Shown here one piece after another: positions 8,501 through 57,990 of a stretch of 64,000 bases of DNA (position 1 is its first letter; each line of letters opens with the position of its first letter). The position numbers were made by a program, and so were the translations under genes. The notes beneath the pieces are model-generated. The model made no database searches. It was not told the DNA's origin and worked only from the letters and a program-made list of their open reading frames with translations. Origin of the DNA: an uncultured Candidatus Saccharibacteria bacterium (lineage in GTDB: Bacteria > Patescibacteriota > Minisyncoccia > Phycocordibacterales > UBA1006); NCBI GenBank assembly GCA_964592365.1, contig CAZQDL010000001.1:146989-210988 (forward strand), written 5' to 3'.

Positions 8501-8530
8501 CAATTACCGTTCCGTGGTACCATAACAAAT

Positions 8531-11500: not shown

Positions 11501-12001
11501 TCTTGGCCAACTTTAGAATTAAACGAAGGTCATATTAGCGCTTTGGAAAGTATGAAGCGTGTTCGTGAGATTGTATCAGAAGGATTGCAAATGAGGTCTG
11601 ATTCTGGAATAAAAGTTAGGCAACCATTATCTTCATTACAAGCTCCGTTAGAAGGACTTCATGAGGAATATCACCTACTTATCACCGACGAACTAAATGT
11701 AAAAAAACTCGTTTCTGGAGATAAGTATGTTCTTGATACTGAAGTAACCAACGAACTTCAATTAGAGGGAGACGTTCGAGAGTTACTTCGTTTCATACAA
11801 ATATTTAGAAAGGATCAGGGGCTTGATGCTCATGATACTATTACCCTAAGTATATCTACTTCAGATGAAGGAAGAAATATTATTGAATCTCATATACAAG
11901 AGATTAAAAATACAGCTTCTATAAATGAAATCGTATTTCAGGAAAACGAAGGAACAACTGTTGAAGTAAGAGATGTTAGTTTTACGCTTAGTATTATGTA
12001 A
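8531..12001 (+). CDS. ileS: isoleucyl-tRNA synthetase with an inserted histidine-phosphatase (PGAM-like) domain; ORF track starts at 8486 but MNNSLKK at 8531 is the likely start
   Basis: HYGH, PHCWRC and KMSKS motifs. A roughly 200-aa block (about nt 10000-10640) has RHGE, LTETGRKQA, SPFQRTMETA and ITHGG motifs of the histidine phosphatase superfamily. Confidence 0.9.
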   Translation: MNNSLKKSETAHAEERILSFWKDQNIFEKSLLEKTKGDFVFYDGPPFATGLPHYGHLLAGTIKDIIPRYMTMKGHHVSRTWGWDCHGLPIENLVEKELGLSSKKDIEEYGIATFNQKARDSVLRYEQEWKQYVPRSGRFINMDQPYMSMHTNYMESVWWIFSQLHKKQLTKQGFKPMHLCPRCETTLANFEVNQGYMDVTDISATVSFQLVDEPETHFLAWTTTPWTLPGNVALAVGKDIEYVKVSEGDLNYIVAKKLCDLVFEGRTYEIVDTMKGSDLIGKKYQPVFDYFKKNNIEHSERGWQVYEADFVTTEEGTGIVHIAPAFGSDDMELGEIHRLPFIQHVGRNGVFIDSFAEGFKGMKVKAKGDWMTADIEIIKWLAHNGKLFSKKKLVHSYPHCWRCDTPLLNYATSSWFIDVPSMKERLMELNAKVNWVPEHVGEGRFGKWLEGARDWALSRSRFWGTPLPVWQNASATETLVIGSIEELLSHIPSSGNTYIGVRHGESVSNATGEINAKRELHNPLTETGRKQAESEAQKLKDMAIDYLFVSPFQRTMETASIIKEQLGLSDSQIIVDERLRERNPGDSWEGKQWHDAHTQEERERDGDFWNYKLEDNAESIGDIYKRVMPFLFELEETYAGKNIVIITHGGVLKTILFGLKHHGDHTKAHAFFNETALPSNAELISLPFKKFPHNDEYEIDLHRPYLDTVTLIDSNGEEMKLLGDVFDVWFDSGSMPYAQVHYPFENKDLFEEQRFPAQFIAEGLDQTRGWFYVLSVLGVALFDTIPFENVIVNGLILAEDGKKMSKSLNNYPDPHEMFNSVGADAIRLYLIASPAVRGEEFAFSEKSVRDVSSKVMGRMRNVVNLYTTYKANVDHTYSFDSQNVLDIWMQARLIELLHDVQSGLEVYQLDKAARPIFDFVDDFSTWYVRRSRDRYKMGEEKDMHDALATTRMSLKVFAQISAPFVPFLSEEIWQMLREDDSELEESVHLSSWPTLELNEGHISALESMKRVREIVSEGLQMRSDSGIKVRQPLSSLQAPLEGLHEEYHLLITDELNVKKLVSGDKYVLDTEVTNELQLEGDVRELLRFIQIFRKDQGLDAHDTITLSISTSDEGRNIIESHIQEIKNTASINEIVFQENEGTTVEVRDVSFTLSIM

Positions 12002-22717: not shown

Positions 22718-22776
22718 AATTGAAATGGTTAGAAAAATTGTCATTTTATTTAGTTAATTGTTTAGTTAGTTTAGTG

Positions 22777-22803
22777 GCTCTTCTTTCGGGAAGAGCTTTT
22801 TCT
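22777..22803 (+). terminator. rho-independent terminator after tatD (inside the ORF-track 5' extension of rpsF)
   Basis: GCTCTTC-TTTCGG-GAAGAGC plus TTTTTCTTT. Confidence 0.6.
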
Positions 22804-22830
22804 TTACACAATAGAGAAAATAGGTACTAT

Positions 22831-23544
22831 ATGCTGAGTATGAATAACGAAAATACAAAAGGTTTCTCAAATGATGTTACATCATCAGAGCCACGTGTTT
22901 ACGAATTGGGATATCTTATTATGCCAAGCGTAGATGAGGGAGATCTTGGAACACAACGCGATGCGTTGGTGGCACTTATTACACGTTTTGAAGGAATTGT
23001 TATTGATGAAGGACAACCAGCATTAATTGATTTAGCTTATGAAATGGATAAATTAATTAACAACAAACGAGCAATCTTCAATCAAGCTTACTTTGGATGG
23101 ATTAAGTTCGATGTATCACCACGAGGTGTTGAAGCACTTACTAAAGAAATTGAAGCTGTACAATCTCTTATTAGATTTATTTTAGTTAAAACAATAAAGG
23201 AAAATACTCTTACATCAGAGCAACCTTATAAGTTAGCTAAAACATCAGGTGATGTTTCAAATGATTCAGAAGAAGATATTGAAATTGATGAAGTTGATGA
23301 TCTTACAATGATCGAAGGAATTGGTTCAGTTATCGCTGAAACGTTAGCAGACGCAGGAATTGAAACTTTTGAAGCATTAGCAGGATTAGGGAATGAAAAA
23401 ATCCAATCTCTTATCACTGATGTTAAAGGAGTTCATGATAGCTCAACATGGGCACAACAGGCTCAACTAGCAAGAGATGGAAAATTTGAAGAACTAAAAA
23501 ACCTTCAATCAGAACTCAAAGGAGGAGTAAAGGAAGAAGAGTAA
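22831..23544 (+). CDS. rpsF: 30S ribosomal protein S6 with a long C-terminal extension containing helix-hairpin-helix motifs (ORF track start 22720)
   Basis: The S6 core runs from YELGYLIMPSVDEG to AYFGWIKFDV...LIRFILVKT. The C-terminal roughly 100 aa carries HhH motifs (IEGIGSVIAETLADAGIETFEALAGL; DUF4332-like). The start was moved past the tatD terminator. Confidence 0.8.
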   Translation: MLSMNNENTKGFSNDVTSSEPRVYELGYLIMPSVDEGDLGTQRDALVALITRFEGIVIDEGQPALIDLAYEMDKLINNKRAIFNQAYFGWIKFDVSPRGVEALTKEIEAVQSLIRFILVKTIKENTLTSEQPYKLAKTSGDVSNDSEEDIEIDEVDDLTMIEGIGSVIAETLADAGIETFEALAGLGNEKIQSLITDVKGVHDSSTWAQQAQLARDGKFEELKNLQSELKGGVKEEE

Positions 23545-27893: not shown

Positions 27894-28403
27894 GCTGAAT
27901 GTAAATTCATCTTTTAATTTGTTTACTGTCTCTTTGAATTCTTTTAATGATTCAAGAGCTTTGGAAGAATTATTTCCAAAGTCAAACAAGGTGATTTTTC
28001 TAAACAAATCTTTTAGTGCATGTAACACTAGGAGTTGTTCAGGACATCTGAAGCTACAGATTTTGTAGTTTTCTTTTTTGAGAAATTCAGTTTCATAGAA
28101 TACCCCTACTTCAAACATATTTTTCTTGAGATTATTTTTAATTAAATCAATTTCCGAATCTAATTCAAAAATATCATTTCTGATCTTCAAGAGTAATTTG
28201 TTGTTTTCATGAAAGGTACCTTCAATTTTTTTTGATTCCCTTGATCTTCTGTTATACAGTTGATCAATTGAATTAATTTTTCTCAGATACTGATCAAGTA
28301 AGTCGACATCGATTAGCTCGATTAACTTAATTGAATTTTCTTTAATTGTTTCGAACACGTGAGGTGTAAGTTTTTTTGTTGCTTTGGCTGCAGATTTTCT
28401 CAT
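27879..28403 (-). CDS. hypothetical coiled-coil protein (174 aa)
   Basis: Charged, K/E-rich ORF with its own terminator. Confidence 0.5.
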   Translation of the reverse strand: MRKSAAKATKKLTPHVFETIKENSIKLIELIDVDLLDQYLRKINSIDQLYNRRSRESKKIEGTFHENNKLLLKIRNDIFELDSEIDLIKNNLKKNMFEVGVFYETEFLKKENYKICSFRCPEQLLVLHALKDLFRKITLFDFGNNSSKALESLKEFKETVNKLKDEFTFSKAAI

Positions 28404-28479
28404 AAGTTATTTAGTTTTGGAAATTTCACTATACTATACATTTTATCATTATGTAAAGTTCCTAAAGTACTCTTGGTGG

Positions 28480-29898
28480 ATGAAATACTATATTACAAGT
28501 TACCTATTAGGTATTGTTACCCATTCTTTGTGGTTTGATATTGACTACACAAAGGTGATAGCCGTTGTATTTTTTCTTGTATTGGTATGTTCATTATTTT
28601 CTTTCAAAAGTATCTTAAGATGTGTTCTTTGTGCTTTGTTTTTTCTCTTTGGAATATATTTATTCCATTTAAAACTTCCAGATACTTTGAGTTTAGCTGA
28701 TGTTGTAGATACGAAGGTACAGATTCAAGGAAAAGTTGTTTCTGAGTATATAGATCAAGTAAATTTCAAGCAGTTTGTTGTTGATATTGGAGATAGCGAA
28801 AGGATACTTGTGAGGACAAACAGTTTAGCTTACGTTGAATATGGTGACACTCTTTTGTTATCAGGAAAGTTAATGCTTCCAGAATCTTTTGAAACAGATT
28901 CAGACAGGATATTTAATTACCCAATGTATCTTCAGAAGGATAACATTTTTTATCTTCTTTCTTATACAAGTATTCTTGATATTCAAACCAAAGAACTTTC
29001 ATTGAAAGATAGGTTTATACGAAGGTTGTATGAGAATAAGGAATTGTTGATTGAAAGGGCAAATATGAGATTACCTCAACCCCATGCGGGCCTATTAGCT
29101 GGTATTTTGTATGGCAAAAAGGGAAGTATGAATGCTGAGATTGATGAGCAGTTTAGAGCTGTTGGTCTAACGCATATTGTTGTTTTGTCAGGATATAATG
29201 TTAGCTTGGTAATACAACTATTTTTGATTGTATTAGGTTTTTTACCAATACGATTAAGATCAACATTAGCTTTTTTAGGTATTATTACCTTTGCTTTACT
29301 TGTAGGGGCAGGACCAACCGTGGTAAGAGCATCTATCATGGCAAGTCTCTTAGTGCTTTCAGGATTAGTGCATCGTGAATATGATGTCATAAGAGCTCTT
29401 ATCTTTGCTGGAGTTATTATGGTGTCACTAAATCCATATATTCTACTATTCGATATTTCTTTTCAATTATCTTTCTTGGCAACTTTTAGTCTCATCTATG
29501 TATCTCCGTTAATTGAAAGATATTTTCAAATTGTTCCAAATATTCTTGAGTTTCGTTCATCTTTAGTTGCTACTATTTCAGCACAAATCTTTGTCCTTCC
29601 TTTAATTTTTTATCAAATAGGAGAATTCTCGGTAATCTCAATTGTAGTTAATACCATTGTTTTATTTGCGGTTCCTTTTGCGATGCTTTTCGGAGCAATA
29701 TCTTCAATCCTTTCTCCTGGTTTCATTTTGGAAATATGTATATTTATCACATTTGTATTTCTTGAATATATTGTGAAATTAGTTTCATATTTTTCTCGAT
29801 ATCCACTGGTACATATTCCACCATTTCATATTTCAGTATTGATCCTAATATATCTTATCCTGTTTTTTGTTTTGTATGTGAAATCAGATAAGGTATGA
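28480..29898 (+). CDS. comEC: ComEC/Rec2 competence protein, membrane (DUF4131 + Competence) portion (ORF track start 28384 from TTG)
   Basis: LSGYNVSLV...LLVGAGPTVVRASIMASLLVL competence-domain motif and many TM helices. The ATG at 28480 has a GGTGGA Shine-Dalgarno. Confidence 0.7.
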   Translation: MKYYITSYLLGIVTHSLWFDIDYTKVIAVVFFLVLVCSLFSFKSILRCVLCALFFLFGIYLFHLKLPDTLSLADVVDTKVQIQGKVVSEYIDQVNFKQFVVDIGDSERILVRTNSLAYVEYGDTLLLSGKLMLPESFETDSDRIFNYPMYLQKDNIFYLLSYTSILDIQTKELSLKDRFIRRLYENKELLIERANMRLPQPHAGLLAGILYGKKGSMNAEIDEQFRAVGLTHIVVLSGYNVSLVIQLFLIVLGFLPIRLRSTLAFLGIITFALLVGAGPTVVRASIMASLLVLSGLVHREYDVIRALIFAGVIMVSLNPYILLFDISFQLSFLATFSLIYVSPLIERYFQIVPNILEFRSSLVATISAQIFVLPLIFYQIGEFSVISIVVNTIVLFAVPFAMLFGAISSILSPGFILEICIFITFVFLEYIVKLVSYFSRYPLVHIPPFHISVLILIYLILFFVLYVKSDKV

Positions 29899-32343: not shown

Positions 32344-32435
32344 GGGTATTGCATTTTTTAGTGCTTTTAGTATAGTCGACCCTATCAAAACCTCCCTGCA
32401 AGAGGTTGTTATATTGCAGACACTTTAACTATCAT

Positions 32436-32849
32436 ATGGCAAAAATTAACCAACTCGTTCGAAAAGGACGCATACAACAAAAAAAGAAACCAAAGGCGGT
32501 TGCACTACGAAGAGGTTTTAACTCTTTGAAGAATCAACCAACGAGATATCCTTCACCATTTAAACGTGGAGTTTGTACAAAGGTTACTACCATGACACCA
32601 AAAAAGCCGAACTCAGCGCTTCGAAAGATTGCCCGAGTACGACTTACTAATGGTATGGAAGTTACTGCATACATCCCAGGAATGGGACACAAACTTCAGG
32701 AACACAGTGTGGTGCTTCTACGAGGAGGTAGAGTAAAGGACTTGATTGGAGTTCGATACACTATCGTTCGAGGAGTACTTGATGCAACCGGAGTAGATGG
32801 ACGAAAGAATTCTCGTTCACGATATGGAGCTAAGAAACCTAAAAAATAA
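32436..32849 (+). CDS. rpsL: 30S ribosomal protein S12 (ORF track start 32406)
   Basis: [12 protein letters not shown]...[10 protein letters not shown]...[14 protein letters not shown]. Confidence 0.95.
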
Positions 32850-32854
32850 TTATT

Positions 32855-33325
32855 ATGCGAAGACCAGTAAAAAACAGAAAAGCACCACAAGCTGAATCAG
32901 TATATGGATCAATTAAGCTTTCTCGATTCATCAATTACGTTATGTTAGATGGAAAGAAAGAAACTGCACGAAAAATCGTGTATGGAGCACTTGATGTCAT
33001 TAAAGCAAAAGAATCTGATCGAGAACCGCTTGAAGTATTTGAAGCCGCATTGAAAAATGCAGGTCCAGTTACCGAAGTACGATCACGAAGAGTAGGAGGA
33101 GCAAACTATCAAGTACCTGTTGAAGTTCGTCCAGAACGACAACAAGCTTTAGCTATGCGATGGATTATCACAGGAGCTCGAAGCAAAAAAGGAGGAGATA
33201 TGAAAGATTTCCTTGCTCAAGAACTTATCTTAGCTGCAAACAATGAAGGAGAAGCAGTAAAGAAGAAAGAAAACGTTCACAAGATGGCAGAAGCAAACAA
33301 AGCCTTTGCTCACTTTGCTTGGTAA
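32855..33325 (+). CDS. rpsG: 30S ribosomal protein S7
   Basis: FINYVMLDGKKETARKIVYGAL...SRRVGGANYQVPVEVRPERQQALAMRWII...KMAEANKAFAHFAW. Confidence 0.95.
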   Translation: MRRPVKNRKAPQAESVYGSIKLSRFINYVMLDGKKETARKIVYGALDVIKAKESDREPLEVFEAALKNAGPVTEVRSRRVGGANYQVPVEVRPERQQALAMRWIITGARSKKGGDMKDFLAQELILAANNEGEAVKKKENVHKMAEANKAFAHFAW

Positions 33326-33356
33326 GAACTCACCTTGGGTGGGTTCTTATTTTTTG
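33324..33356 (+). terminator. rho-independent terminator directly after rpsG (where fusA would normally follow)
   Basis: 11-bp stem AAGAACTCACC-TTG-GGTGGGTTCTT plus T-run. Confidence 0.7.
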
Positions 33357-33387
33357 GTATACTTTAAAGTATATTAGTTAATACAAT

Positions 33388-33663
33388 ATGAACATGACAG
33401 AATCACAAGAATTTTTAACCTATATTATTAAAAACATTGTTAATCATCCTGATGACGTAAGGGTTGACCACAGTATTGATGATATTGGAACTCTCCTAAC
33501 ATTAACCGTGCATCCTGATGATATGGGGCAAGTAATTGGACGTCAGGGAAACACAGCAAGCTCAATTCGATCACTTGTTCGTGTTGTTGGTATGAAGTTA
33601 GGTCAACGAGTGAATGTAAAAATAGTTGAACCACAAAAAGAAGAAGAGCAAGCAGGGGAATAG
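33388..33663 (+). CDS. KH-domain RNA-binding protein (YlqC/UPF0109 family)
   Basis: HPDDMGQVIGRQGNTASSIRSLVRV KH/GXXG-type motif; 91 aa. Confidence 0.75.
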   Translation: MNMTESQEFLTYIIKNIVNHPDDVRVDHSIDDIGTLLTLTVHPDDMGQVIGRQGNTASSIRSLVRVVGMKLGQRVNVKIVEPQKEEEQAGE

Positions 33664-33691
33664 CAATCACTTTTGTGCATTGCTTTTTTTC
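33662..33691 (+). terminator. rho-independent terminator after the KH-protein gene
   Basis: AGCAATCAC-TTTT-GTGcATTGCT plus T7. Confidence 0.55.
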
Positions 33692-33700
33692 TGATATACT
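33692..33700 (+). promoter_or_regulatory. extended -10 promoter (TGaTATACT) 10 nt upstream of the adk ATG
   Basis: cTGATATACTTCCaatcgcATG, the same TGATATACTTCC as upstream of pilin 1. Confidence 0.4.
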
Positions 33701-33709
33701 TCCAATCGC

Positions 33710-34303
33710 ATGGGTGAGCAAACTATAATTTTTATTGGACGTTCTGGTTCTGGAAAGGGAACCCAAATAGAACTACTCAAAGAGTATTTTGCAAAACATA
33801 CTCCTGAATCTTCAGTTTTTCATTTTGAATCTGGGGATCATTTTAGAAATTTCATTAAATCAGATGGTTATACCAGTGAACTAATGAGAAATATCATTGG
33901 TGAAGGAAAACTTGCACCAGACTTTATCACTGGCTGGTTACTTGTAGATGCCTTAGTGAAGAATTTTAAACGTGGACAAACATTAATTCTTGATGGATTT
34001 CCTCGTACACAAACACAGGCACTGACACTTGATTCAGCTATGGAATACTATGATAGAAAAAATATTAAAGTAATTCATATTGATGTTTCAGAGGATGAAG
34101 TACGACGACGTATGGTTTCTCGAGGACGTGCCGATGATGCTGTTGCTGAAGTGGTTGAACGACGAATAACTTGGTACAACGAAAATGTAATTCCTACTAT
34201 TAACTATCTACGCATGAAACCTGCTTATGAGGTTATTGATATTAATGGAGAACAAGATATTAAAGAAATTCAGGAAGAAATTATTCAACGTCTAGGATTA
34301 TAA
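33710..34303 (+). CDS. adk: adenylate kinase (short form)
   Basis: GRSGSGKGTQ P-loop, LILDGFPRT, arginine-rich lid RRMVSRGRADD. Confidence 0.8.
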   Translation: MGEQTIIFIGRSGSGKGTQIELLKEYFAKHTPESSVFHFESGDHFRNFIKSDGYTSELMRNIIGEGKLAPDFITGWLLVDALVKNFKRGQTLILDGFPRTQTQALTLDSAMEYYDRKNIKVIHIDVSEDEVRRRMVSRGRADDAVAEVVERRITWYNENVIPTINYLRMKPAYEVIDINGEQDIKEIQEEIIQRLGL

Positions 34304-34314
34304 TTATCAATACT

Positions 34315-35004
34315 ATGAGAGCATACAAAGAAACAATTGTTATATCAGTAGGTGGTTCACTTTTGGTTCCAGACCGGGTGGATGTTGATTTTATCAGTCG
34401 CTTAAAGGATATGGTTCGTTTCTTTATCAATGATGGATACCAAATTGCTCTTATCATTGGAGGAGGAAAAACTTCACGTAGATATGGTGAAGTTGCCTCT
34501 TCTTTTTCACATATTTCAAATGAAGATTTAGATTGGATTGGGATAAAAAGTATACATTTGAATGCAGAATTGATTAAACGATGTTATGGAGATCTTGATA
34601 TTCATCCAGAGGTTATTTTGAAAAGAGAAGATATTTCAAAAGTTACTGAATCTTTAGTAATTGTAGGGGCTTGGAAACCAGGTCACTCAAGTGATTACAA
34701 CGCAGTTACAATGGCAGAGTCATTCGGAGGAAAAAAGGTTATTAATTTCTCAAATATATCTTATGTCTATGATATGGATCCAGTAAAGTATCCAGATGCA
34801 AAAATTATTGAAACATTAACTTGGGACAAATACTTAACTCTTATCCCAACTAAGTGGGAAGCAAATCTTTCAGCACCTTTTGATCCAGTTGCTTCTCGTA
34901 AAGCACAAGAGCTTGGAATGACCGTTGCTATACTAGGTTCATCATTAGAAAATTTAAAAAACTATCTAGACGGGAATCCTTTTGAAGGAAGTATTATCTC
35001 ATAG
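34315..35004 (+). CDS. pyrH: amino-acid-kinase-fold UMP kinase, archaeal type (putative)
   Basis: [10 protein letters not shown]...[14 protein letters not shown]...[12 protein letters not shown]...YVYDMDP pattern of archaeal-type uridylate kinase. Confidence 0.55.
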
Positions 35005-35013
35005 ATTGTCTTG

Positions 35014-35022
35014 TGATATACT
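35014..35022 (+). promoter_or_regulatory. extended -10 promoter (TGaTATACT) 8 nt upstream of the pilin 1 ATG
   Basis: tgTGATATACTTCCttgtATG. Confidence 0.4.
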
Positions 35023-35029
35023 TCCTTGT

Positions 35030-35494
35030 ATGAAACCAAAAGGATTCACCTTAATTGAATTATTGGTGGTAGTAGCTATTATTGGAATATTGGCAACCAT
35101 AGTACTTGCATCCTTAGGAAGTGCACGGGAAAAGGCACAGGTAGCTCGAGCAAGAGCTGAAATGAGAGAAATATATACCCTCATGGATACTGCTCGCATT
35201 TTTGAAGGTACAACATTAATGGGAGTAACAGGTTCAGGGTGTACTCATTGTAGTAATGCCTGGAATACCTCAATTGATAGGATAGTAACTAAAGCTGATC
35301 CTACCGCTACAGATGGTTCACGATTCTATACTGATGTTTGGGGTAGCCCATATTATCTTGATGAAAACGAAGGTGAAATTACCACAAACCTTTGTAGAGT
35401 AGATGGATTCAGGTCTCGTGGACCTGATAAGGCATTAAGTACCACAGACGATATCTCTTATCCGATACCTTTTTCACTACCACAATGTCTCTAA
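35030..35494 (+). CDS. type IV pilin / pseudopilin-like protein 1 (ORF track start 34982)
   Basis: MKPK|[23 protein letters not shown] class-III prepilin signal; variable Cys-containing C-terminal domain. Confidence 0.8.
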
Positions 35495-36054
35495 CATCAA
35501 AAACAAAAGGATTTACTCTCATTGAACTACTCGTAGTAGTAGCCATCATTGGAATATTGGCAACCGTGGTGTTGGCATCACTTGGAAGTGCATGGGAAAA
35601 GGCGCGAGAGGCAAGAAAGTTAACTGACTTGAATCAAATAAGGAATGCTTTTGAGTTATATTACCTAGATAATGGAAGCTACCCACTTGCAACTACAGGA
35701 GGCTGGTTTGCATATTGTATTGGTAAGAGTTCAAGTGAAACTTGTTGGAATAATGAACTAAATGGAAATGATGCTTTAAATGCTGCTTTAGAAGATTATC
35801 TACCTCTTGATTACTTCGCTTCTTTAAATGGAGCTGATGCTTCAGCCTTCGTGTTACACAGAGGTGGAACGAGTAATAATCTTGGTTGTGCTGGTGCAGT
35901 TAGATTTGGAAATCAAATTGTTTGGATGCCAAAGGATAACGGAACGGTACCAAATAATTCTTGCCCTGGCGAGAGTATTCGTACCGGTTGTGGGTCAGGA
36001 ATATATCAACAGACGGTATATCATAATAATCACTGTGCATTGTTATTAGACTAA
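35485..36054 (+). CDS. type IV pilin / pseudopilin-like protein 2
   Basis: MSLTSKTK|[23 protein letters not shown]; overlaps pilin 1 by 10 nt (translational coupling). Confidence 0.8.
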
Positions 36055-36058
36055 ATAT

Positions 36059-36083
36059 AAAAAACAACCTTGGTTGTTTTTTA
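36059..36083 (+). terminator. rho-independent terminator after pilin 2
   Basis: AAAACAAC-CTTG-GTTGTTTT plus T-run. Confidence 0.6.
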
Positions 36084-36107
36084 TATTTTGCTACTATCTA
36101 AATATCT

Positions 36108-36872
36108 ATGGCCGTTACGATAAAAACAGAAGAACAAATTTCAGCATTACGTGAAGCAGGAAAAATCCATGCACGTATTTTAGATACGTTGGTGAACATG
36201 GTGAAACCTGGAGTTTCTGCAATGGATTTGAATTCTGAAGCAGAACGTTTGGTTCGTGAGGCAGGTGCTGAACCTTCTTTTCTCGGATATCAACCTGATA
36301 GGAGTTATCCTAAATATCCTGCAACACTATGTGTGTCTATTAATGAAGTTATCGTTCATGGAATTCCAACAAGCGATATGATTATCAAAGACGGTGATTT
36401 GGTTTCTGTTGACTTAGGTCTTAAATATAAAGGGGTATTTACTGATAGTGCAAGAACAATTGCTGTGGGGAATGTTTCAAAAGAAGCAAAAGCATTGCTT
36501 CACGATACTATTGAAGCACTTCATCGTGGAATTGAAGCTGCACGACCAGGAAATACTGTAGGGGATATTGGGTATGCAATTCAATCTTTCAATAACAAAA
36601 GATATGGAAATGTAAGAGAGCTTGCAGGTCATGGGGTTGGTTTAGCCGTACATGAAGATCCCTATGTTCCAAATTATGGAAAACCTAAACAGGGAATTGC
36701 ATTAAAACCAGGTATGGTGTTGGCAATTGAACCTATGTTTAATTTAGGTGGTTCTGAAGTTGTCTTTCATGATGATAAGTATACGGTTACTACTCGTGAT
36801 GGTTCTTTGTCTGTTCATGTTGAACATACTATTTTGATCACTCAAGATGGACCTGAAATCCTCACCTTATAG
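36108..36872 (+). CDS. map: methionine aminopeptidase type I
   Basis: Pita-bread fold metal ligands in conserved context (DLVSVDLG..., HGVGLAVHEDP, LAIEPM). Confidence 0.9.
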   Translation: MAVTIKTEEQISALREAGKIHARILDTLVNMVKPGVSAMDLNSEAERLVREAGAEPSFLGYQPDRSYPKYPATLCVSINEVIVHGIPTSDMIIKDGDLVSVDLGLKYKGVFTDSARTIAVGNVSKEAKALLHDTIEALHRGIEAARPGNTVGDIGYAIQSFNNKRYGNVRELAGHGVGLAVHEDPYVPNYGKPKQGIALKPGMVLAIEPMFNLGGSEVVFHDDKYTVTTRDGSLSVHVEHTILITQDGPEILTL

Positions 36873-36876
36873 TTTA

Positions 36877-36885
36877 TGATATACT
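36877..36885 (+). promoter_or_regulatory. extended -10 promoter (TGaTATACT) 9 nt upstream of the pilin 3 ATG
   Basis: taTGATATACTTatctcatATG; begins 5 nt after the map stop codon. Confidence 0.4.
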
Positions 36886-36893
36886 TATCTCAT

Positions 36894-37499
36894 ATGAAAA
36901 CCAAAGGATTCACTTTAATTGAATTACTGGTAGTAGTAGCTATTATCGGAATATTGGCAACGGTGGTGTTAGCCTCACTTGGTTCAGCTCGAAGTAGAGC
37001 TCGTGATGCAAAAAGGATTGCAGATATGACTAATATACGAACCGCTCTTGAACTTTATTTTCTTGATAATAATAGTTATCCAAGTACTGGTTCATTAAAT
37101 ACAGTATATATGGATACCACTTGTCTAGGTCCAGCAGCAACTTCACCAGACATAAAAAATTCAAATTGGATACCCAACTTAGTTTCAGGTGGGTATATGG
37201 GATCATTGCCACAGAATTTGGGCGAAGCAGGGTACGATTATGCAAGAAGTTTAGCATCTCGTAATACTTGTTATATGTATGCAAGTGATGGAAATTTTTA
37301 TATCTTGTCAGCTTGGGGAGTTGTTGAAAATGGTCCCATAAGCACCACTCATTCGCTATATTCTAGAGTAGGTTTCAGAGAGGGAAATTATGGAGATCAT
37401 CTTTATTACTGTAATCACCCTAATATTGGAAACACCATTAGTGGTGATTATTATCGATATTCATATACCCTGACGAACATAACAACCTGTACGTGGTAG
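36894..37499 (+). CDS. type IV pilin / pseudopilin-like protein 3 (ORF track start 36876)
   Basis: MKTK|[23 protein letters not shown]. The promoter lies inside the track's 5' extension. Confidence 0.8.
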   Translation: MKTKGFTLIELLVVVAIIGILATVVLASLGSARSRARDAKRIADMTNIRTALELYFLDNNSYPSTGSLNTVYMDTTCLGPAATSPDIKNSNWIPNLVSGGYMGSLPQNLGEAGYDYARSLASRNTCYMYASDGNFYILSAWGVVENGPISTTHSLYSRVGFREGNYGDHLYYCNHPNIGNTISGDYYRYSYTLTNITTCTW

Positions 37500-37506
37500 T
37501 GTGTAA

Positions 37507-37540
37507 AATAAAACAAAGCTTAAGCTTTGTTTTATTTTTG
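37507..37540 (+). terminator. rho-independent terminator after pilin 3
   Basis: Perfect 13-bp palindrome TAAAACAAAGCTT|AAGCTTTGTTTTA followed by TTTTT. Confidence 0.7.
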
Positions 37541-37547
37541 TTATACT
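37539..37547 (+). promoter_or_regulatory. extended -10 promoter (TGtTATACT) 7 nt upstream of the pilin 4 ATG (leaderless)
   Basis: tTGTTATACTaacaatATG. Confidence 0.4.
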
Positions 37548-37553
37548 AACAAT

Positions 37554-38060
37554 ATGAAATTAAAAGGATTCACCTTAATTGAACTACTTGTAGTAGTAGC
37601 TATCATTGGAATATTGGCAACCGTGGTGTTAGCATCCTTAGGAAGTGCACGGGAAAAGGCAAAATTCACTAAGCTCGTTGCAAACATTAATCAGCTTGAA
37701 AAAGAATTGCATACTAATAATCCGGGGGTATGGTGGACTGAGCTACCAGGTAATATTATTCCAGCTAGTTCAAATGTTAATGTAACTAAATTTAATTTTG
37801 ATGGATACACCTTTGCATACGATAATGATGCGGATATCAGGCCTAATGCTGATTGTATGGCTAGTGAAGCTGAAATGGTAAGAGGTGTTAGTATTATCGT
37901 ACTTGGACTAACAAGTGCTGATTTTATTACTCTTAATGACTATATTGATCAAGGTGAAAAGAATTATACTACCACCAACAAGAACCTTTGCGGAAAGCTA
38001 TTATGGTACAGCCCTTCAGCTTCAGTAATGTATAGAGTGGCTAATAATTCCTTTGAATAA
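37554..38060 (+). CDS. type IV pilin / pseudopilin-like protein 4 (ORF track start 37527)
   Basis: MKLK|[23 protein letters not shown]. Confidence 0.8.
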
Positions 38061-38084
38061 ACTACTAAAATAGTAGTTTTTTTG
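38058..38084 (+). terminator. rho-independent terminator after pilin 4
   Basis: AACTACTA-AAA-TAGTAGTT plus T7. Confidence 0.65.
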
Positions 38085-38302
38085 TTTGACTAAAAACAAT
38101 TCATAAGTAGTATAAGCACTATCACAACTTGTGTTGTTGTGTTTTTTTATGGAAAACTCATTATTTTCCTGTAAACGACACTTGTTCTTCTGAACACTTG
38201 TCTAGCGCTAGATTATTAATACACAGATGGAGGTAACAGATGCAACACATACCCTTTTTGAGGTAGCCGTCGGTTGCCCTATCGCTTAACTAAAAACAAA
38301 CT

Positions 38303-39499
38303 ATGTCAGAAACTTTCGACAGAAGTAAAACCCATATCAACGTGGGAACTATTGGACACGTTGACCACGGGAAAACTACTCTTACTGCAGCTATTCTTCA
38401 CTCATTGAACTTAGCTGGAAAAAAGGTAAAAATGAAGGACGTATCAGGAATTGACAACGCTCCTGAGGAACGAGAACGAGGAATTACTATCTCAATCTCA
38501 CACAACGAGTATGAATCAGATAGTCGACACTACGCACACATTGATGCGCCAGGTCACGCTGATTACATCAAGAACATGATTACTGGTGCTGCTCAAATGG
38601 ACGGTGCTGTAATCGTAGTTGCAGCTACTGATGGACCTATGCCTCAAACTCGAGAACACATTCTTCTTGCTAAGCAAGTGGGTGTTCCAAACATCATTGT
38701 ATTCATCAACAAAGAAGATATGATGGCAGGAGAAGAGGAAATGATCGATCTTGTAGAAGAAGAAATGCGAGAACTACTTACTAAGTATGATTTCGATGGA
38801 GCAAACGCACCTGTTATCAGAGGATCTGCACTTAAGGCACTTGAATCTGATTCAGTTGATAATCCATGGGTACAAAAGGTTATTTCTTTGGTTGACGCTA
38901 TGGATACCTTCTTCCCAGACCCAATTCGAGAACTAGATAAACCATTCCTAATGCCTGTTGAAGATATTTTCTCAATCGAAGGACGAGGAACAGTTGTTAC
39001 TGGAAAAATCGAACAAGGAAAGGTAAAAGTTGGAGAAACTATTCAAATTGTTGGAATCAAGGATACTGTTTCAACAACAGTTACTGGAGTTGAAATGTTT
39101 AACAAACAACTTCAAGAAGGTCTTGCTGGAGACAACGCTGGAATTCTTCTACGTGGTCTAAAGAAAGATGAAATTACTCGAGGACAAGTGCTTGCAGCAC
39201 CTGGATCAATTACTCCTCATACTGAATTCGAAGCAGAAATTTATGTTTTGAAGAAAGAAGAAGGAGGACGACACACTCCATTCTTTAAAGGTTACAAACC
39301 TCAGTTCTACATCCGTACAACTGACGTAACTGGAGAAATCGAACTTCCAGAAGGAACAGAAATGGTAATGCCTGGAGATACTATTACTCTTAAGGTAAAA
39401 CTACAAGTTCCAGTAGCTATCAACGGAAACATGCGATTTGCAGTTCGTGAAGGAGGACGAACCGTTGGAGCTGGAGTAGTTACTAAGATTGTCGCGTAA
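38303..39499 (+). CDS. tuf: elongation factor Tu
   Basis: [33 protein letters not shown], and the full 398-aa EF-Tu architecture. Confidence 0.95.
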
Positions 39500-53167: not shown

Positions 53168-54166
53168 ATGAAAAAAAAGTACCATATCTCAATTTCAATT
53201 TCTGATACCGCGTTTCGATACGTGGTTGTTGATCGTGATCAGAATGGTTTTTTTGTACCTGCTTATGGAGAAACTTTTCTTGAAGAGGGGATTGTAGTAA
53301 AAGGTGAAATTATCAAAGCAAGTGCTCTTTTGGATGTCATTACATCATTCAAGAAAAATCTTCCAGATTCTTCGGTATCCATCTATTCACTAGTATTACC
53401 ACATCAGTATTTCATTCATGATTCTTTCTTAGTTGCAGGAGTATCTAGTCAGAAACAAAAAAATTCTGCTATTCAACAATATCTGGGTGATAACATACAA
53501 CAATATCCATGGGCAGAGAATCATAGCTGTCTATATCAAACAGATGAACATGATATGGTCTATGTTGAAGCTCTTCCTCATGAACGGTATCAGAGTTATA
53601 TAACCCTACTTTCTTCTTGTGGAATTGATAACGTAGAAGTACATAGTGATATATCAGCCGTTTCAGTTATGGTAAAAGATTCTCCTTCTGTCGTTATCAA
53701 AATTGATAACGAAAAGAGTTATGTATTTGAAATTAATAATGGTTTTGTAGAAAGCAAAAAGACCTTTGAACTTTCATATCAAAGTTTGGTTAGTGATGTA
53801 GTTAAATTCTTAGGTGTTGATTTAGATTTTGCACGAAAGGTAGTGCGAAAATATGGAGTCTCAAGAGCCCATCAGGAACCTAAGGTATATCAAAGAATTG
53901 TAAGGTCTGTATCACCTTTACTTGATTATCTTAAAGTGAATAAATCGACAAGAAAGAAGAAAATATATTTGTGGTTTTCACATGAACCACTTGTTGGAAT
54001 GAAGGATGTATTGACCAAACAGATGCATACTGAAATTAATGTTATCTCTCCTGTGCATAACGAAATAGTTTTGTACCATGAGGTGTTAGATATTCATATG
54101 GATGATACCTATCGCTATTCTGCATTGTTGCTTACCGCTTCACTATCAATGAATGGAAAACTGTAA
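53168..54166 (+). CDS. PilM-like actin-fold protein (putative type IV pilus assembly), low confidence
   Basis: The N-terminal pattern and the roughly 330-aa size loosely match PilM. Pilin genes lie 15 kb upstream. Confidence 0.35.
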   Translation: MKKKYHISISISDTAFRYVVVDRDQNGFFVPAYGETFLEEGIVVKGEIIKASALLDVITSFKKNLPDSSVSIYSLVLPHQYFIHDSFLVAGVSSQKQKNSAIQQYLGDNIQQYPWAENHSCLYQTDEHDMVYVEALPHERYQSYITLLSSCGIDNVEVHSDISAVSVMVKDSPSVVIKIDNEKSYVFEINNGFVESKKTFELSYQSLVSDVVKFLGVDLDFARKVVRKYGVSRAHQEPKVYQRIVRSVSPLLDYLKVNKSTRKKKIYLWFSHEPLVGMKDVLTKQMHTEINVISPVHNEIVLYHEVLDIHMDDTYRYSALLLTASLSMNGKL

Positions 54167-54225: not shown

Positions 54226-54297
54226 CCCCTTATAGTTCAATGGATAGAACGAGGGACTTCTAATCCCTAAATCTAGGTTCGATTCCTAGTGGGGGGA
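54226..54297 (+). tRNA. tRNA-Arg (anticodon TCT)
   Basis: Acceptor CCCCTTA/TGGGGGG (two G-U pairs), D-arm GTTC-AATGGATA-GAAC, anticodon arm AGGGA-CTTCTAA-TCCCT, T-arm CTAGG-TTCGATT-CCTAG. Confidence 0.8.
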
Positions 54298-54313
54298 CAA
54301 TGAAAATATACAG

Positions 54314-54386
54314 GGGCGATTAGCTCAGTTGGTAGAGCAGTTCGTTTACACCGAAAAGGTCAGGGGTTCGAGTCCCTTATCGCCCA
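54314..54386 (+). tRNA. tRNA-Val (anticodon TAC); the last 10 nt are overlapped by the stop-proximal end of the serine recombinase gene
   Basis: GGGCGAT-TA-GCTC-AGTTGGTA-GAGC-A-GTTCG-TTTACAC-CGAAA...AGGGG-TTCGAGT-CCCTT-ATCGCCC-A. Confidence 0.85.
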
Positions 54387-56194
54387 CGAGAAGTGTTACT
54401 CACACTAGAACTAACATCTGTTGATTCAGATGTTTTTTCTATAGTTGGGTTAATTAGATGCTCTTGGCTAGAGATTTCTGCAAGAATATCTTGAGGAAGC
54501 TTAAGTCGCATAGATAATCTAAAAGGCACTTCTTGACCATCTTTTTTTGGTCCAGCAATAATATCAGTATTCTTTTTATCTCTTGAATAAATGACAATTT
54601 CATCAACAAGCATATGAATAACCTCCTCTACTAATTCCTTGTTTCCAGATACTTTCTTTAAAACGTTTTGATATTTCTCACTAAAAAGTTCAAGAGTTTT
54701 CAGGTATCCATCAGATATATTATTCTGTGCAATTTTTTCATATATATCTCTTAGCTCGTTTCGGTAAAGAAGTTCTGAATTATTTATTTCTTGAGTTCTT
54801 TCTTTGAGTTCTTTGGGTGATATCAATCCATGTTCATGTTGAATTGATAGTTGTCTTTTACGATTTGGAATCCCAGAGATAAGCCCATTTATTTTTTCCT
54901 GTTGATTATGGAGTTTTTTAATTTCTGTCTTAGAGGAGGAAAGTGTTTGTTGGTGTTTATACACAGCTAAAGGGTTACTAATCAATTTTAAGCAATTTTC
55001 TATAACAAAATCCTCAATTTCCTTTGCTGGAAGAGGTAGCGTCTTGCACTTAGTATTATATTTACTATGACTCTTTCTACTACATACATAGTAATAAGCA
55101 TATTTATTATTTCCTTTCATTAATTTTGGAACACCATTCCAATTATTACGGTGACCATTATTTCCTTTTAAATGAAAACAAGCATCACAGGTTAAAAGCC
55201 CACTTAAATAATATGGTTCTGGACGCTTGCGTGAGCTAATATTAATGGTTTTTGATTTCTCTAGTATTTTCTGTGCTTTTTCAAAAGTTAGTAGATCTAT
55301 AATTATAGGCATGGAATAATCAGATTTTTTCCATTCTTCTTTCGGGAGTTTTTTACCTTTTTTACTTTTAGCATAATAATAAATTCCAGTATAAAGCTCA
55401 TTTTTTAAAATTCTTCTCACGGAAAGATCATTCCAGTGGAAAGGAGAGTTTTGCTTTTTTGATGTACCCTCCCTCTTTTTATTCTTTATAGTAGAGGATT
55501 CAGGTGATAATAATTTATGATCTTGCAAATATTTTGCTATTTTGCCTATTCCGTATTTCTTGTTTACATATAAATCAAAAATAGTTTTAACTCCTTCAGC
55601 TTCTTCTCTAATTATAGATAGCTTCTTATCTTCTCTTTTTTTGTAACCATAGACAGGTGCATTACCCATATAAGTTCCACTATGTGCAGATACCTCTCTA
55701 CCTGCTTGTGTTCTTTGTTTAATGGTTTCAATTTCCAATTCAGCAATAACACCAATTATACTTAGAATAGCTCTACCAAATGGTGTAGTAGTGTCAATGT
55801 TTTCAGTAACTGAAACGAACTTTATTTCACTCTCTTCAAAGAAATCTATAATTTCATGAAGTACTTTTAATTTTCTAGCAAATCTATCTATTCTATACAC
55901 AATCACCACATCAAAGGGTCTATTCTCTGGGTTTGAGAAAGTGATCTCTTCTTTGAGTCGAGCTAGAGCGGGTCTCTCGTCAGGGGGAATAGTTCCACTT
56001 ATTCCATTATCAAAATACACATATTCTTCACCAGCAAATATAAATGGTTCATCTGTATATTTACGGGATTCTATGAGATTCAAAATAGCCTCCTTTTGGA
56101 TCTTTGGACCATACTTTTCAACTTGATCATCAGTAGAAACTCTAAGGTAAATTGCTACTTTTTTTGGTCCTCTCTTTGCTTTTAATGTATTCAT
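54377..56194 (-). CDS. large serine recombinase (resolvase-domain integrase)
   Basis: AIYLRVSTDDQ (catalytic Ser), VIVYRIDRFAR, recombinase domain, Cys zinc-ribbon (CDAC...C...C), C-terminal coiled coil; 605 aa. Confidence 0.85.
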   Translation of the reverse strand: MNTLKAKRGPKKVAIYLRVSTDDQVEKYGPKIQKEAILNLIESRKYTDEPFIFAGEEYVYFDNGISGTIPPDERPALARLKEEITFSNPENRPFDVVIVYRIDRFARKLKVLHEIIDFFEESEIKFVSVTENIDTTTPFGRAILSIIGVIAELEIETIKQRTQAGREVSAHSGTYMGNAPVYGYKKREDKKLSIIREEAEGVKTIFDLYVNKKYGIGKIAKYLQDHKLLSPESSTIKNKKREGTSKKQNSPFHWNDLSVRRILKNELYTGIYYYAKSKKGKKLPKEEWKKSDYSMPIIIDLLTFEKAQKILEKSKTINISSRKRPEPYYLSGLLTCDACFHLKGNNGHRNNWNGVPKLMKGNNKYAYYYVCSRKSHSKYNTKCKTLPLPAKEIEDFVIENCLKLISNPLAVYKHQQTLSSSKTEIKKLHNQQEKINGLISGIPNRKRQLSIQHEHGLISPKELKERTQEINNSELLYRNELRDIYEKIAQNNISDGYLKTLELFSEKYQNVLKKVSGNKELVEEVIHMLVDEIVIYSRDKKNTDIIAGPKKDGQEVPFRLSMRLKLPQDILAEISSQEHLINPTIEKTSESTDVSSSVSNTSRGR

Positions 56195-56276
56195 AGTATT
56201 AAGGGAAGTGTTACATAGAACTATATGTAATTATATTTAGTTTAACAGAAAAAGGTGAAATTTTTAAAGAAATGTA

Positions 56277-56285
56277 TGGTATAAT
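56277..56285 (+). promoter_or_regulatory. extended -10 promoter (TGgTATAAT) 7 nt upstream of ATG 56292 (leaderless)
   Basis: aTGGTATAATactaatATG; divergent from the recombinase gene. Confidence 0.45.
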
Positions 56286-56291
56286 ACTAAT

Positions 56292-56654
56292 ATGGCTAGG
56301 AAAATTACTCAAAAACAGAAAGTATTTGCTGATATCTATATTGAGTCAGGAAATGCAACGCAAGCTGTTAAAAAGGCGTATAAGTCTTCTAGTGACGCTT
56401 CTGCACGCAGTATAGGAAGCCAGAACTTAACAAAACTTAACATTCAAGAGTATTTGAAAAATCAGGCTCAACCAGTACTAATAAATATGGTCCATTTGGC
56501 CCTCAATGCTGACAGGCAATCTGATCAAATAAGAGCTGGGAAAATTATCCTAGACAGAACTATTGAGGAGAGGCTTAACCCAATTTCTCTTAGTTTTGTA
56601 GAGAATCGGAAAGAAAAGGAAACAGCTATTAGAGACTATTTAGAGTCATTATGA
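56292..56654 (+). CDS. phage terminase small subunit-like HTH protein (Terminase_2-like)
   Basis: TQKQKVFADIYIESGNATQAVKKAYKSSSDASARSIGSQNLTKLNIQEYL matches the terminase small-subunit N-terminal pattern (KQ..F..EYL..GNATQAA.KAGYS...A...G..LL....I). Confidence 0.45.
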   Translation: MARKITQKQKVFADIYIESGNATQAVKKAYKSSSDASARSIGSQNLTKLNIQEYLKNQAQPVLINMVHLALNADRQSDQIRAGKIILDRTIEERLNPISLSFVENRKEKETAIRDYLESL

Positions 56655-56751
56655 GAATATTATTTTTTATATTTAAGGTACAATTATACTAATTGAATAT
56701 TATTAACAGGCCCAACCATTGTTAGAATGAGTGGTTCAATATCCAAACAAA

Positions 56752-57990
56752 ATGAAAAAACAACTTCTTATAGTAATTACATTAATGATATTAGGTTCAA
56801 TTTTTCCCGTTATTCATGCTTACGGACAAGTGAATAATGTCGATTTTAAACATTATAGTCTAACTCTTCCAGCAGATTGGGAAGAATTACCTTATTCACC
56901 ATACATTGAAGATATAAATATAGAATTAAAATATTCATCTTCAGAGTATATTAAGGATTATAAGATTGGATACTTTAAAAATAGTAAATATTATCCTCCA
57001 AACTCTCTCTCTGAGATCTTGCAGGGCCGTGATATTCCAAAAGAATTTTTAGAAACAAATAGAAGTCTGGAAAAAATTGAATCGGCTTATTTCTTAATTC
57101 AACAATTCCATATATCTGATATTTATATAGAAGATGTATACAAGGATCTTAGAAGAAATAAAGACAACATTTACGGCTTAAAATTTCTTAGGAATGAATC
57201 TATTAGTTTATATAGGGATGATAATAGTATAATTGTGGACACGTATGGCGTTGATCAGCCTACATACACGGCACTATTTCTTGGTAAGGATTTAGTAACC
57301 CAATTAGATTATTATTCTGTTGGTATGGAAAATATCAAAGAAGATGAAAAAGATTTTTATAAAATTGTAGAGTCCTTTTCTTATGATAATAATTATAGAT
57401 ATGATAAGTCAGAAAAATCCCTATTTGATTTTCATTCTTATTTACCAATGATTAGATTCTTTCTAATAATCACCTTTATTATGTTGATCGGATGGAGAAC
57501 TATCAATTATTTTAAGAAGAGAAGAGCTTCTAATAGTGGGAAAATAATTTCAAAAAAAATAGAGAATGAAAAGACTTCTCCTAGAGAAAAAAAAGAGAAA
57601 GTTAAAGAACCCCTTTGGCGATTTGCATTACTCTCAATAATAACCTTAGGTATATATGAGTTAATTTGGATGTACAAAAATTGGAGAATTTTGAAAAGAG
57701 AATTAAATCTAGATGTTGAGCCTTTATTCAGAGCATTATTCTCACCAGTTTATATTTATAGGTTTAGTCTGAGAGTAGAGGACCTTTGTAAAAAGGAAGG
57801 AATAAAAACAAATAAATATAGTGAAGCACTAGTAGTTTCTAGTATTTACATATTCTTTTCTTTTTCAGTTAATTTCCCAGGATATACTCCATTGTTGGTA
57901 CTTTTTACATTTCTTCCTTTATTACCTCTAGTAAAATTAATGAATCAATATTGGTCCAAGAAGGATAGTAATAAAAAGCCACTTAGTTAA
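56752..57990 (+). CDS. secreted/membrane protein with C-terminal DUF4234-like GIY-motif TM domain (ORF track start 56731)
   Basis: Signal peptide MKKQLLIVITLMILGSIFPVIHAYG. Large Y/N/K-rich ectodomain, then TM segments including LSIITLGIYELIWMYKNW. Confidence 0.5.
   Translation: MKKQLLIVITLMILGSIFPVIHAYGQVNNVDFKHYSLTLPADWEELPYSPYIEDINIELKYSSSEYIKDYKIGYFKNSKYYPPNSLSEILQGRDIPKEFLETNRSLEKIESAYFLIQQFHISDIYIEDVYKDLRRNKDNIYGLKFLRNESISLYRDDNSIIVDTYGVDQPTYTALFLGKDLVTQLDYYSVGMENIKEDEKDFYKIVESFSYDNNYRYDKSEKSLFDFHSYLPMIRFFLIITFIMLIGWRTINYFKKRRASNSGKIISKKIENEKTSPREKKEKVKEPLWRFALLSIITLGIYELIWMYKNWRILKRELNLDVEPLFRALFSPVYIYRFSLRVEDLCKKEGIKTNKYSEALVVSSIYIFFSFSVNFPGYTPLLVLFTFLPLLPLVKLMNQYWSKKDSNKKPLS

Follow-up and report, generated by a model that had tools for sequence, protein, structure and literature searches.

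Type IV pilin paralogs with a shared 5' coding cassette, and a likely past cassette-mediated duplication, in a Patescibacteria-like genome

Pilin genes and their common 5' cassette

Four type IV pilin-like genes, here called pil1 to pil4, are clustered on the plus strand of a 64,000-nucleotide (nt) stretch of DNA from an uncultured Candidatus Saccharibacteria bacterium (assembly GCA_964592365.1, contig CAZQDL010000001.1, positions 146,989 to 210,988). This whole stretch is referred to as the window. The initial annotation had described four same-strand prepilin genes with a common N-terminus and the methionine aminopeptidase gene map in the middle of the cluster, and both descriptions were confirmed (Table 1). 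All four open reading frames (ORFs) scored above the cut-offs of Pfam N_methyl PF07963 (31–36 bits against 21.2) and NCBIfam TIGR02532 (32.5–38 bits against 16.3). Each encodes a class III signal peptide, in which a short basic leader is followed by Gly(-1), Phe(+1) and Glu(+5). The leader of pil2 is MSLTSKTK, and further leaders of the cluster are MKTKG/FTLIE and MKLKG/FTLIE (slash, predicted cleavage site).

By analogy with the family, prepilin peptidase would cleave after the Gly of K-G/FTLIE. The invariant hydrophobic helix would serve as a membrane anchor and pack in the filament core, and the divergent C-terminal domains may present distinct surfaces, as for major and minor pilins. The whole-protein scores of all four pilins fell short of the NCBIfam equivalog cut-offs for GspG, GspH, ComGC and PilA. 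The top equivalog score was obtained with GspG (40.7–56.3 bits against a cut-off of 88.85) and came from N-terminal residues only. The genes should therefore not be named GspG, PilA or ComGC.

Sequence matches in the PDB covered residues 3–110 of pil3 and 4–101 of pil2 and were to pilins and GspG. Such matches lay mainly on the N-terminal helix of pilins, GspG and geopilin, a few of them extending to residue 101–110. The predicted model of pil1 appears to adopt a pilin/pseudopilin fold, and a Foldseek search of the PDB with it yielded a weak match to PulG only. The AlphaFold2 model of pil3, built from a 3-sequence alignment, had a predicted local distance difference test score of 38.7. When GTDB genomes were scanned with pil1, the best matches were metagenome-assembled genomes of Saccharibacteria at 30–32% identity, the remaining matches being confined to the N-terminus.

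The C-terminal domains had been described as unrelated in sequence. This holds for pil1 and pil4, whose bodies showed no significant similarity to the others (pil1–pil2, E = 0.024; remaining pairs, E at least 0.7), but not for pil2 and pil3, which are weakly homologous along their length (27.8% over 151 amino acids (aa), E = 3e-7). The cysteine patterns do differ, with 4, 6, 4 and 2 Cys in pil1, pil2, pil3 and pil4, respectively.

Table 1. Features of the pilin cluster in the window
Feature	Position	Strand	Description
Segment R	35011–35592	+	Duplicated segment of 582 nt: -10-like box, pil1, and the leader and cassette of pil2; contig alignments
TGATATACTT, extended -10-like box	35014–35023	+	6 nt before the pil1 ATG
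pil1, 154 aa	35030–35494	+	Prepilin, leader MKPKG/FTLIE; S-type copy, with a T-type paralog at the transketolase locus
pil1 5' cassette, 87 nt (K-GFTL...LGSA)	35039–35125	+	Pairwise block comparison
148-nt stretch	35445–35592	+	Zero differences between R copies; assembly branch node
pil2, 189 aa	35485–36054	+	Overlaps pil1 by 10 nt; N_methyl 34.9 bits
pil2 5' cassette	35506–35592	+	3' edge (35592) is the right limit of the duplicated segment; several long contigs end there
Hairpin and U-run after pil2, terminator-like	36053–36088	+	-13.9 kcal/mol, z -5.4
map, methionine aminopeptidase	36108–36872	+	Housekeeping; Peptidase_M24, 1.3e-50; between pil2 and pil3
pil3, 201 aa from the ATG at 36894	36894–37499	+	N_methyl and TIGR02532
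pil3 5' cassette	36903–36989	+	Contig L005 ends inside, at 36937
Perfect palindromic hairpin and U-run after pil3, terminator-like	37505–37537	+	-15.5 kcal/mol, z -5.1
pil4, 168 aa	37554–38060	+	N_methyl and TIGR02532
pil4 5' cassette	37563–37649	+	Pairwise block comparison
Hairpin and U-run after pil4, terminator-like, weaker	38059–38083	+	-8.0 kcal/mol, z -2.1

The four genes share a cassette peptide consisting of K-G, 18 further residues and (V/I)VLASLGSA. A degenerate DNA pattern for this peptide matched the window four times (35042, 35509, 36906 and 37566), against 0.00 matches expected from shuffles. A nucleotide match of about 95 nt at 85–90% identity had been reported for these 5' ends. 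Similarity at the DNA level was indeed found, at a lower figure: in the 87-nt block, which starts at the K codon and ends with ..LGSA, the six pairs were 78–89% identical, with a mean of 83.1%. Only pil1–pil4 and pil2–pil4 reached 88.5% in the block (BLAST for these two pairs, 89% over 109 nt and 90% over 100 nt). The description of the cassettes as near-identical was likewise overstated: among eight cassettes compared, no exact match exceeded the 30 nt common to pil1 (35108–35137) and pil4 (37632–37661). As had been noted, the differences are mostly synonymous; the protein is altered only by one I/V exchange and, just past the block, by an R/W exchange.

The identity of the cassettes exceeds what amino-acid conservation alone would give. 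Back-translation with the codon usage of the window (5000 simulations) yielded 74.7 +/- 1.9% identity with a maximum of 81.6%, so that none reached the observed mean. Identical codon pairs numbered 107, against 65.9 +/- 7.5 expected. The cassette would nonetheless be mainly the DNA footprint of protein constraint.

Segment R and the origin of pil2

Contigs related to the window were collected by exact-protein look-ups, and about 25 were from the same near-clonal population, sampled in JGI and ENA data. The evidence for a duplication consists of these assembled contigs, not of reads. Alignment of the contigs defined segment R, which occurs in two left and two right contexts. On the left, context S contains adk and an amino-acid-kinase (AA-kinase) gene, and context T a transketolase gene and a terminator. 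On the right, context M comprises the pil2 body, map, pil3, pil4 and tuf. Context F comprises the body of another pilin gene, pilX (protein P0121), a small Fzo-like ORF, PfkB and fructose-bisphosphate (FBP) aldolase onward. The closest named homologs of pilX were from Paceibacterota and Patescibacteria.

The limits of R are sharp. Contigs with the T context align to the window from 35011 only, at the TGATATACTT box. Contigs with the F context match the window without a difference through 35592, where the cassette ends, and show no relationship to it from the following codon onward. Accordingly, the first 108 nt of pil2 and pilX are 100% identical and the genes are unrelated from nt 109. The T-type copies of R were 92.3–92.4% identical to the window copy. 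The S-type and T-type alleles of pil1 (pil1S and pil1T) differ at 45 sites, the proportions of synonymous and nonsynonymous differences being 0.19 (pS) and 0.066 (pN). None of the 45 differences falls in the final 148 nt of R (P = 6e-7). As the remainder differs by 10.8% while these 148 nt are still identical, the tract was probably homogenised more recently than the duplication took place.

Contigs of the S-M and T-F types were found together in each of the samples 3300025129 and ERZ17986939. Moreover, one contig of 315,005 nt contains S-type pil1, T-linked pil1, pil2, pilX, pil3, pil4, map and tuf, and a single genome thus carries two copies of R. The T-F locus did not lie within the 8.8-kb downstream extension of the window, where two more pilin genes were located. 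In the assembled contigs, then, R stands in two unique contexts with internal divergence and a probably homogenised tract, the pattern of a segmental duplication with gene conversion.

The direction of the duplication was judged from two relatives. Contig L078, from a sister species of about 81% nt identity, contains a pil1 ortholog, a pilX ortholog (leader MISKTK), PfkB and FBP aldolase, and this gene order points to the pil1–pilX tandem at the F locus as ancestral. Contig L080, from a more distant relative, has the order KH, adk, AA-kinase, pil2 ortholog, map, with no pil1. Its pil2 ortholog (P0143) is 51% identical and has the leader MNFSYSK. As judged from this synteny, the adjacency of map and pil2 is the ancestral arrangement. 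With the L078 ortholog, pil1S shares 74.6% and pil1T 75.4% identity, so that both are equally distant from it, whereas in this region the two alleles match one another at 92%.

In the simplest history, the ancestral pil2 would have lost its promoter, leader and cassette to a copied segment made up of the -10 box, pil1 and the 5' part of pilX (leader and cassette). This 582-nt copy from the transketolase–pil1–pilX locus would have come to lie between AA-kinase and the body of the ancestral pil2. Its right crossover would have occurred inside the cassette and the left junction at or just upstream of the promoter-like box. Because the right crossover is placed inside the cassette, pil2 of the window bears the 5' end of pilX. 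It is thus probably a chimera of the pilX 5' end (leader MSLTSKTK and cassette) and a pil2 body orthologous to P0143, and pil1 at the window position is probably the duplicate. The direct repeats had been proposed as substrates for recombination. For the past this is supported, as the cassette was the junction between pil2 and pilX and the synteny of the relatives agrees; the repeat that matters in the population is the 582-nt R, not the 95-nt cassette.

The ten cassettes known in the genome comprise those of the four window pilins, another four from the T-F locus and a short contig described below (L013), and two just past the end of the window. Their mean pairwise identity is 82.9% (range 74.7–94.3%). 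The cassette of the pilX ortholog in L078 is 78–87% identical to those of the genome, and that of a more distant ortholog 60–69%. Since the L078 ortholog is as similar to the cassettes of the genome as these are to each other, the excess identity is a property of the clade, and it is compatible with gene conversion as well as with shared codon choice. The cassette may in addition be regarded as a dispersed repeat, with at least 10 genome copies at 75–94% identity, which would have mediated homologous recombination and gene conversion over evolutionary time. At the 30-nt run common to pil1S and pil4, pil1T differs in DNA and in four residues (GS..EK against AD..TR), and the run looks like a short conversion tract. 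A scan of JGI metagenomes for a 26-mer common to pil2 and pil4 returned one contig, L081.

Population contigs, alternative explanations and known pilin systems

All four combinations of flanks were present as contigs: S-M (the window, L001 and L004–L007), T-F (L014, L017–L020 and L022), S-F (L009, L015 and L016) and T-M (L002, L003 and L008). Mosaic pil1 alleles, of seven protein types, were carried by 14 contigs, whereas the allele was purely S or purely T on 47. The T/S mosaic P0125 was encoded by five contigs, among them the 315-kb contig, and reciprocal mosaic types were present. The switches between S and T were all confined to the three longest stretches without a difference (148, 62 and 57 nt). 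Two contigs end exactly at 35592, L011 (163 kb) on the S side and L081 (58 kb) on the T side, and L012 (146 kb) ends at 35543. Breaks at these points, with SPAdes contigs at 1.7–7.6x coverage, are what de Bruijn graphs typically give at a repeat that they fail to resolve. Nevertheless, real crossovers would favor the same identical stretches.

The flanks have 0–3 variable sites per 4 kb and are too invariant for phasing of recombinants by single-nucleotide polymorphisms (SNPs). GC skew was positive on the pilin strand in all four flanks and does not settle the orientation of the two loci. Likewise, the bodies of pil2, pil3 and pil4 together with map showed one variable site in 4 kb across nine covering contigs, and over about 20 contigs the pilin bodies did not vary, which speaks against the suggestion that pilin variation is ongoing. 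Exchange between the R copies would leave the set of pilin bodies unchanged and would re-pair only pil1 alleles and flanks. Variants that look recombinant, of the kind that the initial annotation proposed to look for, exist in the assembled data as contigs with swapped flanks and mosaic alleles, but they could be assembly artefacts. Assembly chimerism was considered more likely than real ongoing exchange between R copies, to which perhaps a minor but appreciable chance is left.

Two contigs illustrate the difficulty. L013 (ENA ERZ17986940, 867 nt, 1.7x coverage) carries a pilX body that is 100% identical to the common one, preceded by a different upstream gene and the leader MKSK. Its cassette has 11 differences in the first 66 nt, all peptide-neutral, and the switch falls inside a 25-nt stretch. 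An unrecombined pilX allele was considered for L013 and rejected, as L078 shows the SKTK-type leader to be native to pilX. L013 is either a rare recombinant with the 5' end of another pilin or a low-k assembly chimera. In contig Ga0210027_1000737 (L004/L010), positions 1–173 match nothing else fetched and are fused in frame in the middle of adk at window position 33817. The end of this contig is probably chimeric, a sign that artefacts do occur in these assemblies.

If protein constraint were the only cause of cassette similarity, R and the 5' end shared by pil2 and pilX would have to be products of metagenome assembly. Such products might be expected given that many contigs end within cassettes or exactly at 35592, that mosaic switches are confined to the three longest identical stretches, that the SPAdes contigs have 1.7–7.6x coverage and that L004/L010 has an unrelated 173-nt end. 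Nevertheless, pil1S and pil1T differ at 45 sites and each is fused to its own unique left flank. These flank joins share only about 16 nt and recur in over 20 contigs, produced by independent assemblers from independent samples. The pure S protein was found on 24 contigs and the pure T protein on 23, and the 315-kb contig has both loci. In addition, the excess codon identity is independent of assembly, and the pil2 ortholog of L080 has a different leader and no preceding pil1. Protein constraint with a purely artefactual R was given a very low probability. The converse possibility is that R recombines actively between inverted copies, giving a large inversion polymorphism and pil1 conversion mosaics. 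It would account for the four flank combinations and for the seven mosaic types on 14 contigs, reciprocal ones included. MEGAHIT k141 contigs switch in the 57- and 62-nt stretches, which are below the final k; the near SNP-free flanks suggest variation specific to R; and the positive GC skew of all four flanks is compatible with inverted copies on opposite replichores. On the other hand, S-F and T-M contigs were together in no sample seen, other assemblies break at exactly the same points, as an unresolved repeat would, and the switches occur only in identity stretches of at least 57 nt, as de Bruijn graph chimeras also give. Were the R copies direct repeats, the S-F arrangement would delete tuf and ribosomal protein genes. 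No selective rationale is evident either, since exchange leaves the set of pilin bodies unchanged. Active recombination of inverted copies was accordingly rated unlikely. The fuller proposal, in which inverted copies recombine often and the S-M/T-F and S-F/T-M arrangements coexist with pil1 mosaics in a near-clonal population, was rated slightly less likely again. If true, frequent exchange would amount to a RecA-type polymorphism of genome structure, caused by a pilin repeat in an organism whose genome is tiny and reduced, and would re-pair pil1 alleles with alternative partner pilins.

Programmed antigenic or phase variation, of the type of Neisseria pilE/pilS, Moraxella Piv or the R64 shufflon, would also join a constant cassette to alternative C-termini. 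The cluster resembles such systems in architecture only, its genes being grouped on one strand with a constant 5' part and a variable 3' part. Every copy is a full gene that has a start codon and a leader; a -10-like box precedes three of them, and three are followed by terminator-like hairpins. Silent promoterless partial copies were not found when seven pilin bodies were compared by tblastn with the window, the T-F locus and the 8.8 kb beyond (about 93 kb). Nor was a recombinase found beside the pilin cluster, the neighbors being adk, AA-kinase, map and tuf; the only recombinase of the window (54380–56194) lies at a distance of 16 kb, with tRNA-Val and a terminase gene as its neighbors. The four cassettes are direct repeats, unlike the inverted sites of a Piv or shufflon system. 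With no silent copies in these 93 kb or so, no neighboring recombinase and invariant bodies, this is not a system of the pilE/pilS, Piv or shufflon type. Programmed variation is effectively refuted for the window and was given only the slightest probability.

The explanation preferred here, that the genes are ordinary pilin paralogs with a past cassette-mediated duplication and chimera, was considered likely as a whole. That grading is a joint one, which covers the assignment of the four genes, from sequence, as paralogous type IV pilin-class subunits of a Patescibacteria-like bacterium. Several points weigh against it. The window ORFs scanned included no PilB, PilC or PilD, so that pilus function follows from family membership only. 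The excess identity of the cassettes is modest and could be explained in part by codon choice of the clade or by selection on the 5' end of probably leaderless mRNAs. As the L078 ortholog is equally similar, family-wide concerted evolution within the genome is not demonstrated. Finally, the direction and timing of the duplication depend on two relatives, both represented by short contigs, in which the S-M locus of L078 and the T-F locus of L080 were not seen.

Exchange of pilin alleles via a conserved 5' coding region is known from the pilA allele groups of Pseudomonas aeruginosa and the fimA serogroups of Dichelobacter nodosus. As in those systems, the invariant N-terminal segment would be one crossover site, placing a new C-terminal domain on a resident 5' end. 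Here, by contrast, the exchange would be between paralogous loci of one genome with a whole extra gene, pil1, carried along, and a promoter-like box, not a conserved flanking gene, marks the left junction. In Neisseria, silent pilS copies lack a promoter and the conserved 5' part, and the C-terminal region varies. RecA-type non-reciprocal transfer between pilin paralogs and mosaic alleles would be common features, whereas here all copies are complete, it is the 5' part that paralogs have in common or pass on, and the bodies do not vary in the population. Moraxella Piv and the R64/IncI shufflon (PilV) rely on a dedicated site-specific recombinase and short inverted sites. In them too, rearrangement of the DNA provides one constant N-terminal coding region with alternative C-terminal ones. 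The present cluster has no adjacent recombinase and its cassettes are direct repeats, so that exchange would be by general homologous recombination.

Many pilin genes with conserved N-termini and diverging C-termini have been reported from Patescibacteria, and Nanosynbacter lyticus TM7x has 12 pilins in four loci, which form two pili (PMC11623550). The genes described here resemble the Patescibacteria and Candidate Phyla Radiation (CPR) sets presented in that paper: many small pilin genes spread over several loci, a PilD-type signal peptide, a conserved hydrophobic helix, C-termini diverged beyond recognition and some members GspG/GspH-like in sequence. Unlike the TM7x sets as given there, the pilins of the window are interleaved with adk, map, tuf and ribosomal protein genes, with no assembly genes nearby. 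The organism was also judged not to belong to Saccharibacteria; pil1 is only 30–32% identical to its best matches among GTDB representatives. The passages of the paper examined make no mention of a segmental duplication or a chimeric pil2, and the paper does not use the word 'recombination'.

The base finding is ordinary, as a constant N-terminus with variable C-termini is the known norm for type IV pilins, Patescibacteria included. What is added is an example, cleanly traced down to the junction, of a cassette that mediated the duplication of one gene and made a chimera of another, together with a hint that the structure of a pilin locus may vary. Type IV pili are considered the chief organelles by which Patescibacteria contact hosts and take up DNA, and their pilin repertoires diversify quickly. 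An invariant N-terminal coding segment would act as a portable homology arm that moves pilin genes or their 5' ends between loci. The cassettes and the 148-nt tract are also points at which short-read metagenome assemblies break or may mis-join, and apparent structural variants of pilin loci therefore need read-level confirmation.

Expression signals and genomic neighborhood

The TGATATACTT 10-mer is also found before pil3 (36877–36886) and adk (33692–33701), and TGTTATACT precedes pil4 (37539–37547). A search for this -10-like box gave four matches against 0.38 expected. A TGnTATAcT box stands 6–8 nt ahead of the ATG in pil1, pil3 and pil4. More widely, TGnTATAcT or TATAAT-like boxes were present 6–13 nt upstream of 20 of the 55 start codons, against a background of 4.6% at random positions. 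Boxes so close to the starts suggest widespread leaderless or near-leaderless mRNAs, in which they would function as promoters. A scan for the sigma-70 consensus was uninformative (16 sites against 13.3 expected). The hairpins after pil2, pil3 and pil4 are A/U-rich, and a 34-nt self-complementary match was also found in the region of the pil3 hairpin. pil1–pil2, map, pil3 and pil4 appear to form the transcription units.

The cluster is embedded in an S12-S7...tuf-S10 ribosomal gene region with a GC content of 34.6%. S12, S7, KH, adk and AA-kinase lie upstream of the pilins, and tuf, S10, L3, L4, L23 and L2 downstream. Window positions 32406–39499 correspond to a str operon without fusA between S7 and tuf, and a KH-domain gene, adk, the gene of the amino-acid-kinase family, the pilins and map occupy its place. 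adk and map usually stand last in the spc operon. The genes for ribosomal proteins form a split operon, in which S10-L3-L4-L23-L2 (38303–43364) is followed by BacA, helicases and a phage-like element, and S19-L22-S3-L16-S17-L14-L24-L5 resume about 27 kb later (contig L082, 16628–20735, which is about 6.6–10.7 kb past window position 62052). Two further pilin genes (162 and 161 aa), in opposite orientation, precede the S19-L22 block.

The sole candidate pilus-assembly gene in the window is a 332-aa PilM-like ORF (53168–54166, plus strand). It scored below threshold with TIGR01175 (21.4 bits, cut-off 133; nearly the full profile) and PF11104 (18.8, cut-off 27). A gene for a ComEC-type competence channel (DUF4131 and Competence domains) lies at 28384–29898 on the plus strand, 5 kb upstream of the pilins. 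Speculatively, its proximity would fit a DNA-uptake role for some of them.

At 54226–57990, tRNA-Arg and tRNA-Val are followed by a large serine recombinase (54380–56194, minus strand), the 3' end of which overlaps tRNA-Val. The small terminase subunit (56292–56654) and unannotated ORFs come after it, and the region looks like an integrated phage-like element at a tRNA gene. Elsewhere in the window, the plus-strand ORF at 8486–12001 encodes a 1171-aa class I tRNA synthetase that is IleRS-like (tRNA-synt_1, Anticodon_1 and DUF5915), with a histidine phosphatase domain (His_Phos_1, aa 516–675, 3e-35) inserted in the middle of the catalytic domain. The ORF at 22720–23544 (plus strand) encodes a ribosomal protein S6 domain and, C-terminal to it, a helix-hairpin-helix domain (HHH_5).

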